Positions 9,651 through 57,057 of a stretch of 58,226 nt of DNA are shown here, one piece after another. Under the pieces are notes generated by a model. The model ran no database searches. It was not told the DNA's origin and saw only the letters and a program-made list of their open reading frames with translations. The stretch lies in NCBI GenBank assembly GCA_964580765.1, contig CAZOKW010000002.1:1-58226 (forward strand). The letters are read 5' to 3'. Source of the DNA: an uncultured Candidatus Saccharibacteria bacterium (GTDB lineage Bacteria; Patescibacteriota; Minisyncoccia; 2-02-FULL-40-12; IGHO2-12-FULL-4). Position numbers and translations under genes: made by a program. Numbering within the stretch: position 1 is the stretch's first letter; every line of letters begins with the position of its first letter.

Positions 9651-10703
9651 ATGCTTTGGCAAACTTTTGGATTTGAAAATATTAAGAAATACTTTGTCCC
9701 GATTTTGTTTCCGACCGAGTCGGAATTACAAAATCGAGGATCCTCGATTTCAAACATCCCGATTTTAAAAAAAATAGAGGATGATGAAATCGGGAAAAAG
9801 GCGATAGAGCAAGATTCTTTGGAGCATGCTTATCTTTTCAGCGGACAGGAGATGATCGGCAAAAGAACTTTTGCGCTGGAATTAACACAGTATTTGTTGT
9901 GGGAGGTTTCTAGGGGCAAATCAGCTATACCACCCACTCTCGACCCTCGACTGGTCGCTCGGGAGTTTTCGAGTAGGTGTATGGCTGATTTGCCTACTGT
10001 TTCCACTTGGCCTCTGGATAATTTTATTCCCAACCTGTTGTTACTAGAAAACCAGGTTGGTATAGACGAAATTCGTAAACTTAAAAGTTTTTTGAGTTTA
10101 AAGCCGTATGCGGGGCGTTATAAAATTGCCATTATCGATAATGCGCATAAAATGGGAGTAGAAGCGGCCAGCGCCATACTGAAGGTCTTGGAAGAACCAC
10201 CAGCGCATTCTTTGATTATTCTGGTTAGCGCCAACCCGCAGGCCCTTCTCCCGACTATTTATTCTCGTTGCGTGGAAATTAAATTCGCTCCTCACCCACG
10301 GACCGAGCTTTTGAAATATTTAAGTAAATTGGGGCTAAGCGGAGTCCAGGCGGAATTTTTAACCGATTTTTCCAATGGCCGTTTGGGGCTGGCCTACCGG
10401 CTGAAAGAAAAAGACGCTTTTAAAGACATCAAGAAAAATTTAGAGTGTTTTAACCAACTATTGAGGCTAGGCCTCAATGACCGGATGAAATTTGCCGAAA
10501 AAGTTCTAACTGGAGATAATGGTTCGGAACAAGCGGTAGAGTTATTGCTTTATTGGATGTTCTACCTGCGCTCTGATTTTTCAAAAAATTTAAAAATAAA
10601 CCGCGCTAAGGTTTTAAGGAATATTCTGGAAACCAGGCAAATCTTATCCCAACCCCAATTTAACCAGAGGTTGGCCTTGGAAAATTTATTGATTAACTTA
10701 TGA
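9651..10703 (+). CDS. holB: DNA polymerase III delta' subunit (clamp-loader AAA+), with two in-frame repeat inserts
   Basis: 'AYLFSGQEMIGKRTFA', 'KIAIIDNAHKM', 'LKVLEEPP' and 'PTIYSRC' sensor motifs. Confidence 0.8.
   Translation: MLWQTFGFENIKKYFVPILFPTESELQNRGSSISNIPILKKIEDDEIGKKAIEQDSLEHAYLFSGQEMIGKRTFALELTQYLLWEVSRGKSAIPPTLDPRLVAREFSSRCMADLPTVSTWPLDNFIPNLLLLENQVGIDEIRKLKSFLSLKPYAGRYKIAIIDNAHKMGVEAASAILKVLEEPPAHSLIILVSANPQALLPTIYSRCVEIKFAPHPRTELLKYLSKLGLSGVQAEFLTDFSNGRLGLAYRLKEKDAFKDIKKNLECFNQLLRLGLNDRMKFAEKVLTGDNGSEQAVELLLYWMFYLRSDFSKNLKINRAKVLRNILETRQILSQPQFNQRLALENLLINL
9696..9766. repeat. Family-4 palindromic element in-frame in holB
   Basis: Flanked by TCCCGATTTT direct repeats. Contains hairpin TTCCGAC/GTCGGAA and the perfect palindrome AATCGAGGATCCTCGATT. 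A related copy is nested at 13505-13562. Confidence 0.75.
9915..9994. mobile_element. Family-2 80-bp MITE-like element (TIR GGCAAATCAGCYATAC) in-frame in holB
   Basis: A reverse-complement copy at 15084-15163 differs at only a few positions. It has terminal inverted repeats of 16 nt or more. Confidence 0.85.
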
Positions 10704-10705
10704 TT

Positions 10706-10908
10706 GGTGATAGCGAATATTACTTTTTCCGGACGCTCACTTTTTTCCTGCGAAAAAGTTCGCTCATTGTAAGCTGTGGATTCAGAAAAGCAGACTTTTC
10801 TGTCCAGCTCGCCTCTTTTTCCGCATAATTCTGCTGAATAGACTGCAAAAGAGGCTCGCGAGCAACCCACAGCTTACAGTGCCTTCAAAAGTAATATTCG
10901 CTATCACC
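10706..10908 (+). repeat. long-hairpin element, copy A (candidate structured RNA or insertion element)
   Basis: 22/22-bp outer arms (10706-10727 / 10887-10908). The core is shared with copies at 13387, 19948 and 27011. Confidence 0.8.
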
Positions 10909-10917
10909 AAAACAAAA

Positions 10918-12292: not shown

Positions 12293-13381
12293 ATGATCAC
12301 AGCGATAATTTTTATAATTATTATCGGAATTTTGGTGTTGGTGCATGAACTCGGCCACTTTATTACGGCCAAAAGAGCGGGGATGAAGGTGGAGGAGTTT
12401 GGGTTCGGATTTCCGCCCCGTCTTTTTGGTATTAAAAAAGGGGAAACGATCTACTCAATTAACTGGATTCCCTTTGGCGGATTTGTAAAAATTTATGGAG
12501 AAAGTGGCGACCCTCCTTCGCATAAAGCTACGGAGGGCAAGGAGGAGGCGGATAGTCCGCGCAGTTTTGCTTCCAAAAAACCAGGGACCAGAGCCAAGGT
12601 CATTGTAGCCGGAGTGGTGATGAATGTCATTCTGGCTTATTTTCTTTTGACGGTTGGGAATGTGATGGGTTTAAGAACGGCTGTTGTGGAAACTGATCAA
12701 AACCCACTGATTCGCGATCGCCGTATTCAAATCATACAGATTGTTCCCAATACTCCGGCGGACGAAGCCAAACTGGAGACATTGGATGAGATTATTGGTT
12801 TTGGAAATGTCGCTGAATTCCAGGAATATATAAACCAAAATAGGGGGAAAAATATTCTGGTGCAAATTAAGCGAGGAGGAGAAATTTTAGAAAAACAAAT
12901 TACCCCAAGAGTTAGTCCGCCTCCCGGCGAGGGGGCGCTGGGTATTTCTTTGGCGGCGACGGGAGTGATTAAATATCCTTGGTATCAGGCGATTTATAAG
13001 GGAGCGGAACAAACGGGGATTTTGTTCATCAATACGGTTTATGGCTACGGAAGCATTATCGGCAAGATTTTCACGACCGGTTCGCCGGGGGCGGATATTT
13101 CCGGTCCGATCGGCATTGCTAAATTTACCGGCCAGGCGGCCAGAATCGGTTTTGCTTATTTACTACAGCTGACTGCTTTGATTTCCATCAATCTGGCGGT
13201 TTTAAATATCATTCCTTTTCCGGCTTTGGATGGGGGTAGATTACTTTTTATTATCATCGAGAAGATTAAGGGTTCTCCCATTCCGCGGCGGGTAGAAAAT
13301 CTGGTTAATTCCATCGGCTTCGCTCTTTTGATTTTACTGATGATTTATGTAACAACTAAAGATATAAGTAGGTTATTTTGA
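12293..13381 (+). CDS. rseP: RIP site-2 metalloprotease (M50, RseP-like) with a PDZ domain
   Basis: 'HELGHF' zinc motif in TM1, a central PDZ-like segment and a C-terminal 'NLLPFPALDGG' motif (here 'NIIPFPALDGG'). Confidence 0.9.
   Translation: MITAIIFIIIIGILVLVHELGHFITAKRAGMKVEEFGFGFPPRLFGIKKGETIYSINWIPFGGFVKIYGESGDPPSHKATEGKEEADSPRSFASKKPGTRAKVIVAGVVMNVILAYFLLTVGNVMGLRTAVVETDQNPLIRDRRIQIIQIVPNTPADEAKLETLDEIIGFGNVAEFQEYINQNRGKNILVQIKRGGEILEKQITPRVSPPPGEGALGISLAATGVIKYPWYQAIYKGAEQTGILFINTVYGYGSIIGKIFTTGSPGADISGPIGIAKFTGQAARIGFAYLLQLTALISINLAVLNIIPFPALDGGRLLFIIIEKIKGSPIPRRVENLVNSIGFALLILLMIYVTTKDISRLF
12509..12547. repeat. Family-6 short GC hairpin insert, in-frame in rseP
   Basis: CCCTCC...GGAGGGCAAGGAGG, encoding 'PPSHKATEGKEE'. 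Relatives at 28286-28317, 46829-46887 and 55747-55778. Confidence 0.7.
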
Positions 13382-13386
13382 GTTTT

Positions 13387-13609
13387 GCAGAATGAAGACC
13401 TTATTGCCTCCTTCGGACGCTCGCTCCACCAGCGTTTCCGCTCGCTCGCGGCGTCTGGGGATTTTGTCTGAAGTAGAAGAATAATTATACTTCATCCAAA
13501 CCGTGTCCCGATTTCCGCTTGCGGAAATCGAGGATCCACGATTCTGTAAACAGAATCGGGACAATCCCCATCCTTAGCGCCTCTGAAGGCAACAAGGTCT
13601 TCATTCTGC
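13387..13609 (+). repeat. long-hairpin element, copy C (with a nested Family-4 element at 13505-13562)
   Basis: 21/22-bp outer arms (13387-13408 / 13588-13609) and the conserved GGACGCT...AGCGCC core. Confidence 0.8.
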
Positions 13610-13835
13610 TTTGAAGCTTAAATTTCCGCAGATCGCCATTTACTTTTTTCAAATATGACCGAGCAGACACAAATAAACGAAGATTTCTGAAATCAAGCCG
13701 GTAATAAAAATTGGGTCCGACTCTTGGAGGGGTACAGAATTTTTGTCGGCTTGATGAAGAAATAGAGTATTATTTACCTGCGAGGGCATCTTGAAAAAAG
13801 TGAGTGGTGGCGAAGGAAAGTTTAAAACCAAACCA

Positions 13836-15083: not shown

Positions 15084-15163
15084 AGCAAATCAGCCATACA
15101 CCTACTCGAAAACTCCCGAGCGATAAGTCGAGGGTCGAGAGTGGGTGGTATGGCTGATTTGCC
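15084..15163. mobile_element. Family-2 80-bp MITE-like element, intergenic copy
   Basis: Reverse complement of 9915-9994 with only a few substitutions. Confidence 0.85.
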
Positions 15164-19947: not shown

Positions 19948-20183
19948 GAGCTTAGTTAGGGTATATTGCTTTTTCTGGACACTCGTTTCCCCAGCGAGGA
20001 AACTTCGCTCATTGCGGGCTATGGATTCGGAAACCGACCCCGCTCCTCGCTTCAGGGAATAAGAATAAATTCACTAACCAAGGCCAGAAGTACCCATATG
20101 TCATCTTGCTGACCACTTCAGCGAGGAGCTCTGCAATCCACAGCCCGCAGTGCCTACAAAAGCAACATACCCTAACTAAGCTC
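19948..20183 (+). repeat. long-hairpin element, copy B
   Basis: 25/26-bp outer arms (19948-19973 / 20158-20183) and the conserved GGACACT...AGTGCC core. Confidence 0.8.
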
Positions 20184-26807: not shown

Positions 26808-27010
26808 GTTAAGATGGAATGAATTATAGCAAATAAAAATATTAAAGTTAAAAGTTTTATGGCAGAACGGCCGATAGAACCAAAAGAAGGTCTGGAATCT
26901 GTGGAAAAACAACAGCAGGTTGCCGATGATGTAATTGATAATGAATTGCAGAGGATAGAAGACAAGGTAAATCTGGAACAAGCCAGAGAATCTATATAGG
27001 ATAAGTTTAG

Positions 27011-27174
27011 AGAGTCAGTAAATATATCTCTCCTCCGGACGCTTGCGTCCCCAGCGTGTCCGCCATGCTCGCCGTCGTCTGTGGATTTTGTCCGAAGTGA
27101 AGAAATTATACTTCGTCCAAACCATGCAATCCACAGCCGACAGCGCCTCCCAAGAGACATATTTCCTGACTCTT
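27011..27174 (+). repeat. long-hairpin element, copy D (shortest)
   Basis: 19/21-bp outer arms (27011-27031 / 27154-27174) and the conserved GGACGCT...AGCGCC core. Lies between divergent genes. Confidence 0.75.
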
Positions 27175-27212
27175 TTGTTTATATTTATTTAATCGCATGT
27201 TACAATATAGAT

Positions 27213-40460: not shown

Positions 40461-41426
40461 ATGATTACAAAAACCATTAAAACAACTCCACGGGATTTTT
40501 TTATGCACCTTCTTGTTTTCGCCGCGCTTTACGCTTCAGTCGTCAGTTTTCTGGCTTTACTTTTTGCTTACATCAATGTGTCTTTTCCGGACCGGCTGGG
40601 CTTTCATGGAGACTCCACCGGTGAGATTATTACTCCTTCTTCCGTCTTAATAATTATTTTCCCTGTTTTAATTTTGGTTTCTTGGATTTTGGGGAAAGAC
40701 CTGGCGCAAAATCCAGGAAAAAGAGAAATGAAATTCAGGAAATGGCTGATTTATTTTACTTTGTTTGTGGCGGCAGTAACCATCATTGTTGATCTGATCA
40801 GTCTGGTTTCCAGTTTTTACAACGGAGAATTGACTACCAGATTTCTATTGAAAATGCTGGCGGTTTTGGCTACGGCGGCAGCGATTTTCTGGTATTATTT
40901 TTGGGATTTAAAGAGAGCGGCAGAGCAGAAAACAAATAAGCCCAAATTGGCCGCTTGGGTCTCTTCTGTGATTGTTTTGGTAGCCATCGCCGCCGGATTC
41001 TTTATTGTCGGCACTCCGGCTCAACAGCGCGCCAAGCGATTTGACCAGCAAAGAATCAGCGATTTACAGAATATCCAAAATCAGTTGATCAATTACTGGA
41101 TACAAAAAGATAGGTTACCGGAAGAATCCGGGGAACTATCCCTGGACCAGTTATCCGGGTTTATTTGGCCGAGAGACCCGGAAACAGAGAAAGAATATGA
41201 ATATACCAAACTGACCGCTTTTTCTTTTAGTATTTGCGCGGTATTTAAAACGGAAAATAAAAACGAGGGCAGCCCTTATTCCGGTTACCGGGAATTTCAA
41301 AAACCAGGATTATTGGCCTCGCCCACGGGAATTATTGACAAGCCATTTTACCGCTGGTCCCACGGCCAGGGATTGGTCTGTTTTGAACGGACCATTGATC
41401 CGGAACTGTACAAAAAGCAACCATAG
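40461..41426 (+). CDS. multi-TM protein with a DUF5671-like N-terminus
   Basis: 'PRDFFMHLLVFAALYASVVSFLALLFAYIN' resembles the DUF5671 start as I recall it from CPR proteins. Confidence 0.45.
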   Translation: MITKTIKTTPRDFFMHLLVFAALYASVVSFLALLFAYINVSFPDRLGFHGDSTGEIITPSSVLIIIFPVLILVSWILGKDLAQNPGKREMKFRKWLIYFTLFVAAVTIIVDLISLVSSFYNGELTTRFLLKMLAVLATAAAIFWYYFWDLKRAAEQKTNKPKLAAWVSSVIVLVAIAAGFFIVGTPAQQRAKRFDQQRISDLQNIQNQLINYWIQKDRLPEESGELSLDQLSGFIWPRDPETEKEYEYTKLTAFSFSICAVFKTENKNEGSPYSGYREFQKPGLLASPTGIIDKPFYRWSHGQGLVCFERTIDPELYKKQP

Positions 41427-41888
41427 ATGTTTATGATTTTCAGAAAAATGAGAGAGGGGATTCGCTCCAAAGCGGGGAACGGACGGCCGTTTGAGCTTTC
41501 GGTGGCTTTAATTTTTCCCATTGCTTTTGCTTTTCTGCTCACTTTTGTCAGTTCGAGAATTTTCAGCCATTTTGCTCCTAATTTTTACCTTTTGGAAGTA
41601 GAACCGGGCTTGCGGGTGCATCATTTTGCCTATGGTTTTTTCATTTTAGCGGCCGCCGCCTATCTGGCTCTTATTCATACCGGGCCCAGAGCTAAGTATC
41701 TGATTGCTTTATTGGTTGGATTCGGACTGGGGTTGGCCTTTGACGAATTCGGCATGTGGTTGAGATTGCGGGATGACGATGTGGCCCGCTGGAATTATGA
41801 CGGGTTTAATATTATCATCGGATTTTTCTTTGTGGTTTTATTTGCCAAGCCGGGCATTAGATTTTTGAAAATGCTCTGGCCGTTTTGA
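41427..41888 (+). CDS. hypothetical integral membrane protein
   Basis: 153 aa with 4 hydrophobic spans. Its start abuts the upstream stop. Confidence 0.5.
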   Translation: MFMIFRKMREGIRSKAGNGRPFELSVALIFPIAFAFLLTFVSSRIFSHFAPNFYLLEVEPGLRVHHFAYGFFILAAAAYLALIHTGPRAKYLIALLVGFGLGLAFDEFGMWLRLRDDDVARWNYDGFNIIIGFFFVVLFAKPGIRFLKMLWPF

Positions 41889-56850: not shown

Positions 56851-57057
56851 CGGGCTGGCGTATGATGGTGGTACGACTGCTTTGGGGTTGGGAAAAATTG
56901 TCGGGGCGGAGCGTAGTATACCGGTAGTACACCTGCTTTGGGAGCAGATAGACCGAGTTCGATTCTCGGCGCTCCGACAATTTTTCTCAACGGGAATGCT
57001 GGGGGCATTCCCGGGCGCGAAGCGAGTTAGACTGGGTTCGATTCCCAGCAGCCCGAC
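56851..57057 (+). pseudogene. split/decayed tRNA-Pro-like gene interrupted in its anticodon loop by a 133-nt insert
   Basis: The 5' half is CGGGCTG-GC-GTAT-GATGGTG-GTAC-G-ACTGC-TTTGGGG (56851-56887). The 3' half is GCGAGT-TAGA-CTGGG-TTCGATT-CCCAG-CAGCCCG-A (57021-57057). The acceptor strands are perfectly complementary, and the anticodon stem needs a bulge. Confidence 0.6.
56907..56977 (+). tRNA. tRNA-Pro (UGG), CCA not encoded
   Basis: Hand-folded: CGGAGCG-TA-GTAT-ACCGGTA-GTAC-A-CCTGC-TTTGGGA-GCAGA-TAGA-CCGAG-TTCGATT-CTCGG-CGCTCCG-A. Has C1-G72 and A73 as in bacterial tRNA-Pro. There is one C.A mismatch at 27:43. Confidence 0.85.

Follow-up and report, generated by a model that had tools for sequence, protein, structure and literature searches.

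An apparently undescribed and probably mobile family of foldback elements at gene junctions of Yanofskybacteria-related Patescibacteria

The window, that is, the whole stretch of 58,226 nucleotides that was analysed, contains four long hairpins designated copies A, C, B, and D in their order along the sequence (Table 1), a density of four copies of one family within 58 kb. Copy A fills the entire spacer between holB and frr, copy B occupies approximately 73% of its spacer, and copy C takes up about half of the rseP–proS spacer, the remainder of which is another hairpin element; the sequence-only reading, according to which three copies filled essentially whole spacers, is thus accurate for copy A and overstated for copies B and C. 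With regard to the host, the best named relatives of the delta' protein (DNA polymerase III) encoded in the window were found in Candidatus Yanofskybacteria and other Patescibacteria MAGs, and a protein identical to it, with the same neighbouring genes, was found on an NCBI MAG contig in GCA_007376105.1.

All four loci, with their common core and their shared + orientation in the window, read as previously described, and the core strings quoted from them, as well as the swap of three consecutive pairs from TAA/TTA in copy A to CGG/CCG in copy B, are present in the sequence. An inverted-repeat search revealed that the arms of copies A, B, and C are the three longest inverted repeats of the whole window, and the nearly perfect pairing of the arms within each copy was confirmed (Table 1). 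RNA folding of the four loci gave z-scores of -11.5, -9.4, -8.6, and -8.4, with none of 200 dinucleotide shuffles being equally stable. A covariance-model search, which had been suggested as a check, recovered the same loci: with a model from the copies of other genomes, the matches in the window were exactly these four and nothing else.

Table 1. Positions of the four family copies and of other features discussed in the text, in window coordinates
Feature	Position	Strand	Description
holB	9651-10703		350 aa (~280-300 aa in relatives); two in-frame, stop-free insertions
Insertion in holB	9696-9794		+33 aa; GTCCCGATTT...AAATCGAGGATCC in common with the mini-element nested in copy C
80-bp palindromic element in holB	9915-9994		Arms GGCAAATCAGCTATAC/GTATGGCTGATTTGCC
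Spurious ORF call within copy A	10562-10870	-	102-aa "protein"; no Pfam hit
Copy A	10704-10910	+	Long type; 24-bp perfect arms (24/24 paired), 10704-10727 and 10887-10910; covariance model 195.5 bits
Copy C	13387-13609	+	Short type, without apical P6 domain; arms 23 nt at 96%; 57.7 bits; 4 nt past the rseP stop codon
Mini-element nested in copy C	13506-13561	+	56-nt dumbbell
Rod-like hairpin element	13631-13812		~180 nt; MFE -68 kcal/mol; arms CCATTTACTTTTTTCAA/TTGAAAAAAGTGAGTGG; rest of the rseP–proS spacer
Second copy of the 80-bp element	15085-15162		proS–mreB spacer; orientation opposite to the holB copy; 96% identical as reverse complement
Copy B	19948-20183	+	Long type; arms 26 bp, 25/26 paired (26 nt at 96%); 110.6 bits; 4 nt past the greA stop codon
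Copy D	27009-27175	+	Short type; arms ~19/21 paired; between divergently transcribed genes; 65.1 bits
Counterpart of the L007 430-nt spacer	41424-41429		TAGATG
Inverted repeat around tRNA-Pro	56887-56991		Acceptor stem plus ~13-15 bp (GGGAAAAATTGT / ACAATTTTTCTC)
tRNA-Pro gene	56907-56978		No CCA encoded

Each copy forms one long imperfect hairpin with a conserved asymmetric core and variable ends, a typical long-type copy measuring approximately 200-230 nt. The outer stem P1 (15-28 bp) drifts in sequence, with a conserved inner end (GCTTTT/AAAAGC), and encloses an internal loop (TCC/TNC) followed by GG...CC. The asymmetric core begins with GCTTTTTCC-GGACGCTCG and comprises, on the 5' side only, ACGCTCG, a side hairpin of 6-8 bp with the invariant loop (T)CCAGCG(A), and then TCGCTC; it continues with the core stem CTRTGGATT/AATCCACAG (YRGKCTRTGGATT/AATCCACAGMYYR in a typical long-type copy) and with a small hairpin that is often expanded with ...ATTATACT... 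In the long type, ACCAGC and an apical stem of 12-15 bp ending in TCTTATTC-loop-GAATGGGC are also present, whereas the short type (copies C and D of the window, L011, L034, L037, and others) has no apical domain and is a derivative of the family; internally deleted copies of approximately 100 nt exist as well. The apical domain of copies A and B is degenerate or rearranged relative to the family consensus, with that of copy B being rearranged in comparison with its orthologs in L006 and L055:8421-8646, which explains why the first reading captured the core only in part. The string AGTATAAT, located on the - strand in expanded P5 loops, was considered as an outward promoter and set aside, as visual inspection showed no -35 partner and the string is missing from many copies. 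The arms do not form an intrinsic terminator, in that no T run follows the arms of the four window copies on either strand and a terminator scan around a canonical copy in L030 revealed no site formed by the outer arms of the element.

Comparison of the copies strongly supports a shared fold. On an unguided MAFFT alignment, RNAalifold predicted 72 pairs, 42 of which had compensatory changes. In the 77-sequence alignment, which was fitted to the covariance model and with which the independent MAFFT alignment agrees, 93.7% of the cells pair compared with 71.9% after column shuffling, none of 500 shuffles reached any of the observed measures, and sliding the partners by 1-3 columns reduced pairing to 39-47%. 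Furthermore, 66 of the 72 pairs vary on both sides in this alignment, in line with the earlier view that the fold, which may equally be read as a DNA palindrome, is maintained by compensatory change. One particular example offered for that view, the covariation of GGACGCT:AGYGCC, fails in the wider family, in which the 5' G is invariant and its 3' partner is mostly A (AGAGCC).

The scope of the family is larger than first reported, since a pattern scan and the covariance model together uncovered approximately 70 copies beyond the four in the window. The exact-pattern scan covered one genome per species and returned 39 loci, about 25 of which were true copies with a matching 3' core and arms, all in six CPR MAGs, while the other 14 or so (in Hymenobacter, Polyangiales, and others) were without the 3' core and correspond in number to the chance expectation. 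In metagenomes, the same pattern occurred at 46 loci, mostly from groundwater. The covariance model, built from 18 copies and run across the fetched loci (numbered with the prefix L), gave 86 matches, of which 77 were distinct and all were ≤270 nt. In the scans made, copies were confined to groundwater metagenomes and to a small number of Patescibacteria MAGs related to Yanofskybacteria; the pattern scan found none in viral contigs, and a canonical copy had no match among phage and plasmid records. Searches against Rfam gave no match in the window at the gathering threshold and no credible match for copy A or a canonical copy at E values up to 10, the models of riboswitches, ribozymes, 6S, Y RNA, retrons, omega RNA, and others all being without a match. 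In addition, a literature search of limited reach returned no description of such elements in Patescibacteria, which does not in itself prove novelty.

The outer arms, which had been regarded as copy-specific, are so only superficially. When right-justified on GCTTTT, the arms of about 60 copies align across all genomes to one consensus, (R)AGYTTGGYGAATATTGCTTTT, with a middle section of 8-10 bp that is hypervariable but compensated and with the outermost ~6 nt loosely conserved; at the termini only a loose RAGYTT...AARCTY is common, and some lineages start with GCCG... or TTACCC... Recent within-genome duplicates at unrelated loci (L009/L017; L008/L025/L033) have the same arms, different flanks, and no target duplication, indicating that the arms travel with the element. 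The outer arms are thus homologous, fast-diverging, and compensated, and they are inherited by recent duplicates. A guide-like origin, with arms derived from or complementary to the flanks, was rejected, as the arms scored 6.2 against their own flanks and 5.9 against the flanks of other copies, and the two outliers in this comparison were explained by boundary errors or local duplication; the arms are therefore neither target-derived nor target-guiding.

Empty sites were available for two insertions. At the site of copy A, the holB–frr junction is an ATGA overlap or a 4-nt spacer in two relatives, whose delta' proteins are 72% and 55% identical to that of the window, and a 430-nt spacer in L007, which holds one long and one short copy, has TAGATG as its counterpart in the window. 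As both empty sites measure 0-4 nt and neither contains the simple hairpin that the sequence-only reading had envisaged there, the whole hairpin, arms included, represents the inserted unit. The flanks of 64 unique copies showed no consistent direct repeat that would indicate a target-site duplication (two apparent 7-bp direct repeats, in L030 and L032, are isolated cases), and no consistent flank motif was detected, including any left-flank motif common to the copies. Copies land in tiny spacers, usually a few nucleotides from a stop codon: 23 of 28 co-oriented copies have a 5' end positioned between -19 and +9 nt relative to the upstream stop codon, which overlaps with about ten copies. No family copy was found inside a real ORF, all being located between genes. 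The notion that only the 5' end abuts gene ends was discarded, as the 3' end also abuts the stop codons of inward-reading genes (gaps of ≤40 nt counted).

The uniform orientation noted earlier is an effect of the window, as copies occur in both orientations across the family. Relative to the flanking genes, 26 long-type copies are co-oriented and 10 opposed, compared with two and six of the short type, these counts including some orthologs and thus not being independent. Altogether, 16 of the 44 copies between co-directional genes are antisense, the short-type copies mostly so, and a further 13 copies sit between divergent or convergent genes. In several cases a given spacer is occupied by different copies that point in opposite directions (L032/L036, L064/L088, L015/L058, and copy D/L005, where the L005 copy is of the long type), and because the arms of the paired copies differ, simple inversion was rejected as the cause. 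These cases show repeated colonisation, while the loci, having been fetched around copies, provide no hot-spot frequency. Moreover, all four adjacent pairs of a long and a short copy (L007, L031, L034, and L056) are arranged tail-to-tail.

Hairpins of other kinds also occupy orthologous spacers. The ortholog of the copy C site in L003 contains an unrelated hairpin (12925-13010; a 15-bp stem around a 42-nt interior), and an unrelated long hairpin is present in L024 (3369-3514) at the ortholog of the short-type site L015:1609-1782. An interpretation of the L003 hairpin as a remnant of copy C reduced to its arms was rejected, as the similarity was insignificant (11/20 ungapped by eye, and no alignment by MAFFT). 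Different hairpin families thus seem to have repeatedly colonised the operon junctions of this clade.

Orthologous copies revealed how the element changes in place. The ortholog of copy C (L055:1934-2102, 169 nt) is without the 56-nt nested insertion, and between the two copies, the flanks of which are 81-84% identical, three arm positions have changed on both sides, including one from A:T to C:G, and several core motifs have decayed. Copy B differs from L055 and L006 by multi-base compensated differences and by an extension of approximately 9-12 nt on both arms, and L023 and L081 (flank 86% identical) differ by four compensated transitions and a swapped small hairpin. In another pair, L012 and L036, the element is identical at 205 of 208 positions (98.6%), compared with 83-86% for the coding flanks and 76% for the downstream spacer. 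Just downstream of the latter pair (L012:1520-1660 and L036:3070-3210), an intrinsic terminator (AAAAAGCCTT...AGGCTTTTTT), which is conserved, and a sigma-70-type promoter close to the consensus (TTGACA-17-TATAAT) were observed; insertion of the element took place at the end of the spacer next to the stop codon and left the signals of the next gene intact.

The type of pairing bears on whether the fold is kept as RNA or as DNA. Functional structured RNAs are usually rich in G.U pairs. Among 4,271 informative cells of the family, Watson-Crick pairs account for 92%, G.U pairs on the + strand for 1.5%, A.C pairs (corresponding to G.U on the - strand) for 2.7%, and other mismatches for 3.7%, and selection specifically at the RNA level, which the sequence-only reading had entertained, consequently finds no support in the G.U frequency. 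Transversion swaps are frequent, with GC, CG, AU, and UA within one column, and one-sided intermediates are almost absent. Previous studies have reported multi-base compensations and symmetric indels as footprints of template switching during replication (PMC8794818, PMC8604942), and the pairing pattern of the family resembles that expected of a DNA palindrome corrected in this way. Near-pure Watson-Crick pairing together with the occurrence of both orientations thus does not support RNA-specific selection. In addition, the + strand has three near-invariant U.G positions, which, together with the asymmetric core, show that the reading of one strand, as RNA or as single-stranded DNA (ssDNA), depends in some way on its sequence.

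Among known elements, the nearest analogue is the group of REPIN/REP-BIME elements. A REPIN system includes a single-copy RAYT gene that is usually flanked by REPINs, and BIMEs cluster side by side in mixed orientations. Clustering of a BIME-like kind is seen here in the four long-short tail-to-tail pairs and in a rod element located 3' of three copies. REPINs and BIMEs have a cognate RAYT (TnpA-REP, a Y1 HUH transposase). A scan for HUH/Y1 motifs (HUH...Y) in 590 kb of related loci, which represent each genome in part, yielded no candidate. REPINs form hairpins, are non-autonomous, commonly show compensatory changes, and have been proposed to be moved by RAYTs as single-stranded hairpins (PMC3116915). 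The present family shares with them the hairpin-forming inverted doublet with compensatory change, the non-autonomous, intergenic, and multi-copy character, the single-strand hairpin unit, and vertical persistence within a lineage. It differs in that the ends of REPINs (REP 16-mers) are conserved and the spacer is variable, whereas here the ends are variable and the asymmetric centre is conserved, and in its size of 165-250 nt with side hairpins compared with about 70-110 nt.

Other small palindromic elements offer partial parallels. As had been noted from the four copies, the family does not follow the conventional MITE pattern of fixed terminal repeats: the termini differ among copies, and neither the identical terminal inverted repeats nor the fixed-length target-site duplication of classical MITEs was found. 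The IS200/IS605 derivatives (PATEs) and attC sites are recognised as a folded single strand and not by terminal repeats, IS200/IS605 elements leaving no target duplication and attC sites conserving structure with free sequence. Nevertheless, IS200/IS605 elements have two subterminal hairpins and a fixed flanking tetra- or pentanucleotide, unlike the single global hairpin without flank motif described here, and attC sites differ from the family in conserving outer R boxes and in sitting in cassette arrays. Co-transcribed copies of the Correia/NEMIS and ERIC elements form duplexes; in Neisseria (Correia/NEMIS) these are substrates of RNase III, and in Yersinia an RNase E site is influenced by ERIC (PMC10969869). 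These elements are similar to the present family in size range, foldback shape, and location in transcribed spacers at gene ends, but carry conserved terminal inverted repeats and target-site duplications, whereas this family has neither and its ~6 terminal nucleotides are weakly conserved. The Rickettsia palindromic elements (RPEs), which sit in frame within Rickettsia genes (PMC10969869), are comparable in that several small palindromic families occupy a reduced genome with an obscure mobilisation mechanism; unlike RPEs, the present family is only intergenic, never in frame, and has no sequence relationship to them, and the RPE-like in-frame habit is found in two other families of the window, inside holB.

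Taken together, the four hairpins are apparently copies of an undescribed foldback mobile element of 165-250 bp, and the family is probably a non-autonomous, REPIN/MITE-like one restricted to a small clade of Yanofskybacteria-related Patescibacteria. Under this interpretation, the element would be moved in trans while folded in single-stranded form, with ssDNA as the likeliest substrate, in a manner akin to REPIN/RAYT or IS200/IS605 systems, in which the structure and a few unpaired bases are read and not the terminal sequence, and the conserved unpaired core would serve as the recognition surface. Template switching within the hairpin during replication may keep the stems complementary, with selection against non-folding copies probably also acting, and the long duplex RNA of transcribed copies would be a by-product and not a selected property. 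Transcription of the copies and cutting by RNase III, both raised by the sequence-only reading, are plausible. As regards a mobiliser, no gene for a transposase or reverse transcriptase was present in the window, ten proteins encoded beside copies were housekeeping enzymes (UvrD, NDK, UDG, endonuclease IV-like, PolX, NeuB, and similar), and no long version that could represent an autonomous parent was present among the 86 model matches.

Three features, namely the 26:10 orientation bias, the 98.6% identical ortholog pair, and the three U.G positions, fit strand-specific or host selection better than purely selfish DNA. It is conceivable, if unlikely, that the family is a multiplied functional structured RNA that is selected at the RNA level, with a host-selected role for some copies, acting in cis between cistrons as a site of processing by RNase III or RNase Y, as a determinant of mRNA stability, or as a hairpin by which the insertion is looped out and stop and start codons are held close together, or else constituting a gene for a small RNA that has a stalk for processing. 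Such an RNA would account for the asymmetric core with its invariant unpaired motifs and covarying stems, for the predominantly co-oriented long type and the starts close to upstream stop codons, for the conservation of the L012/L036 element beyond that of its flanks, and for arms that stay paired in place while core motifs decay (copy C and L055), as well as for the conserved U.G positions on the + strand. Nevertheless, G.U pairs are no commoner than A.C or other mismatches, more than a third of the copies between co-directional genes and most short-type copies are antisense, divergent and convergent gene pairs have copies between them as well, presence varies among close relatives, the same spacer may hold different copies in opposite orientation, the short type persists without the whole apical conserved domain, and Rfam offers no match.

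Two further explanations were considered. The proposal that hairpins already present at the individual loci (terminators or older palindromes) received the conserved core at their centre, the arms being host sequence, has become extremely improbable, because the empty sites of copy A and of the L007 cluster contain no hairpin, the arms align across copies and genomes and are the same in recent duplicates at unrelated loci, and the L003 hairpin has no convincing homology to the arms of copy C; what had favoured it were the differing arms in the window, the different long hairpins in some orthologous spacers (rseP–proS in L003; L024), and the occurrence of nested insertion, as exemplified by the mini-element inside copy C. 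A retroelement-like mobile RNA, the hairpin transcript of which would be reverse-transcribed and re-integrated and would need its fold for recognition by the reverse transcriptase, is very improbable: structure-dependent conservation of the core, the absence of target duplication and terminal repeats, and the orientation bias of the long type are consistent with it, yet no reverse transcriptase is encoded in the window or by the neighbouring genes, neither poly-A nor a branch or priming motif was recognised, no Rfam retron or group II intron model matched, and pairing statistics that are Watson-Crick-only do not point towards RNA.

A more speculative, and rather unlikely, version of mobility is a replicator specified by structure, in which a novel CPR enzyme would recognise the folded asymmetric core in single-stranded form, be it ssDNA or RNA, with cutting and joining taking place at the base of a stem that may have any sequence and differ in length. 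Such structure-specified cutting and joining would explain the missing terminal repeats, target duplications, and flank motifs, and the same or related machinery might also move the adjoining, nested, and in-frame rod or dumbbell elements. If true, this would represent a mode of transposition without a described counterpart.

In addition to the family copies, other hairpin elements were detected in the window (Table 1). The two insertions in holB resemble Rickettsia RPEs, here in an essential replication gene. The 80-bp element, which also occurs in related genomes with 90-94% identity (L076:4403-4482, L011:2895-2974, and L088:6406-6484), represents a family of its own, which is MITE-like in that its 15-bp terminal repeats are conserved. 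The rod-like element of the rseP–proS spacer, the proS-proximal segment, had no Rfam match and was also found in L055 (2136-2294), L070 (9245-9407), and L058 (3367-3520); it lies just 3' of a family copy in three different loci in the same relative orientation, which suggests composite units or insertion next to existing elements. Moreover, the tRNA-Pro gene sits within an inverted repeat by which its acceptor stem is lengthened, and the stem of the precursor would be unusually long for a tRNA.

The family also has practical consequences for annotation and assembly. Its copies create spurious ORF calls, and besides the call within copy A, an apparent 46-aa ORF was called on the related NCBI contig at approximately the position of copy D (~27000-27180; inferred from the neighbouring genes, unaligned). 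Furthermore, its repeats break MAG assemblies, and contig ends often cut copies (L004, L005, L006, L015, L034, L040, L042, L047, L067, L068, L073, L074, L082, and L084).

With approximately 70 copies and both orthologous and empty sites, the family provides a clean natural data set on hairpin stems in which pairing has been preserved almost exclusively by replacement of one Watson-Crick pair with another, both among copies and in place at orthologous sites, and it illustrates that covariation alone is no proof of RNA function, since template switching can yield the same pattern. The mobilising enzyme, if found, may be a new structure-reading recombinase. For the organisms themselves, the findings mean that, tiny and tightly packed as CPR genomes are, those of this lineage nevertheless carry several hairpin families at operon junctions, inside one another, and even within the essential gene holB.
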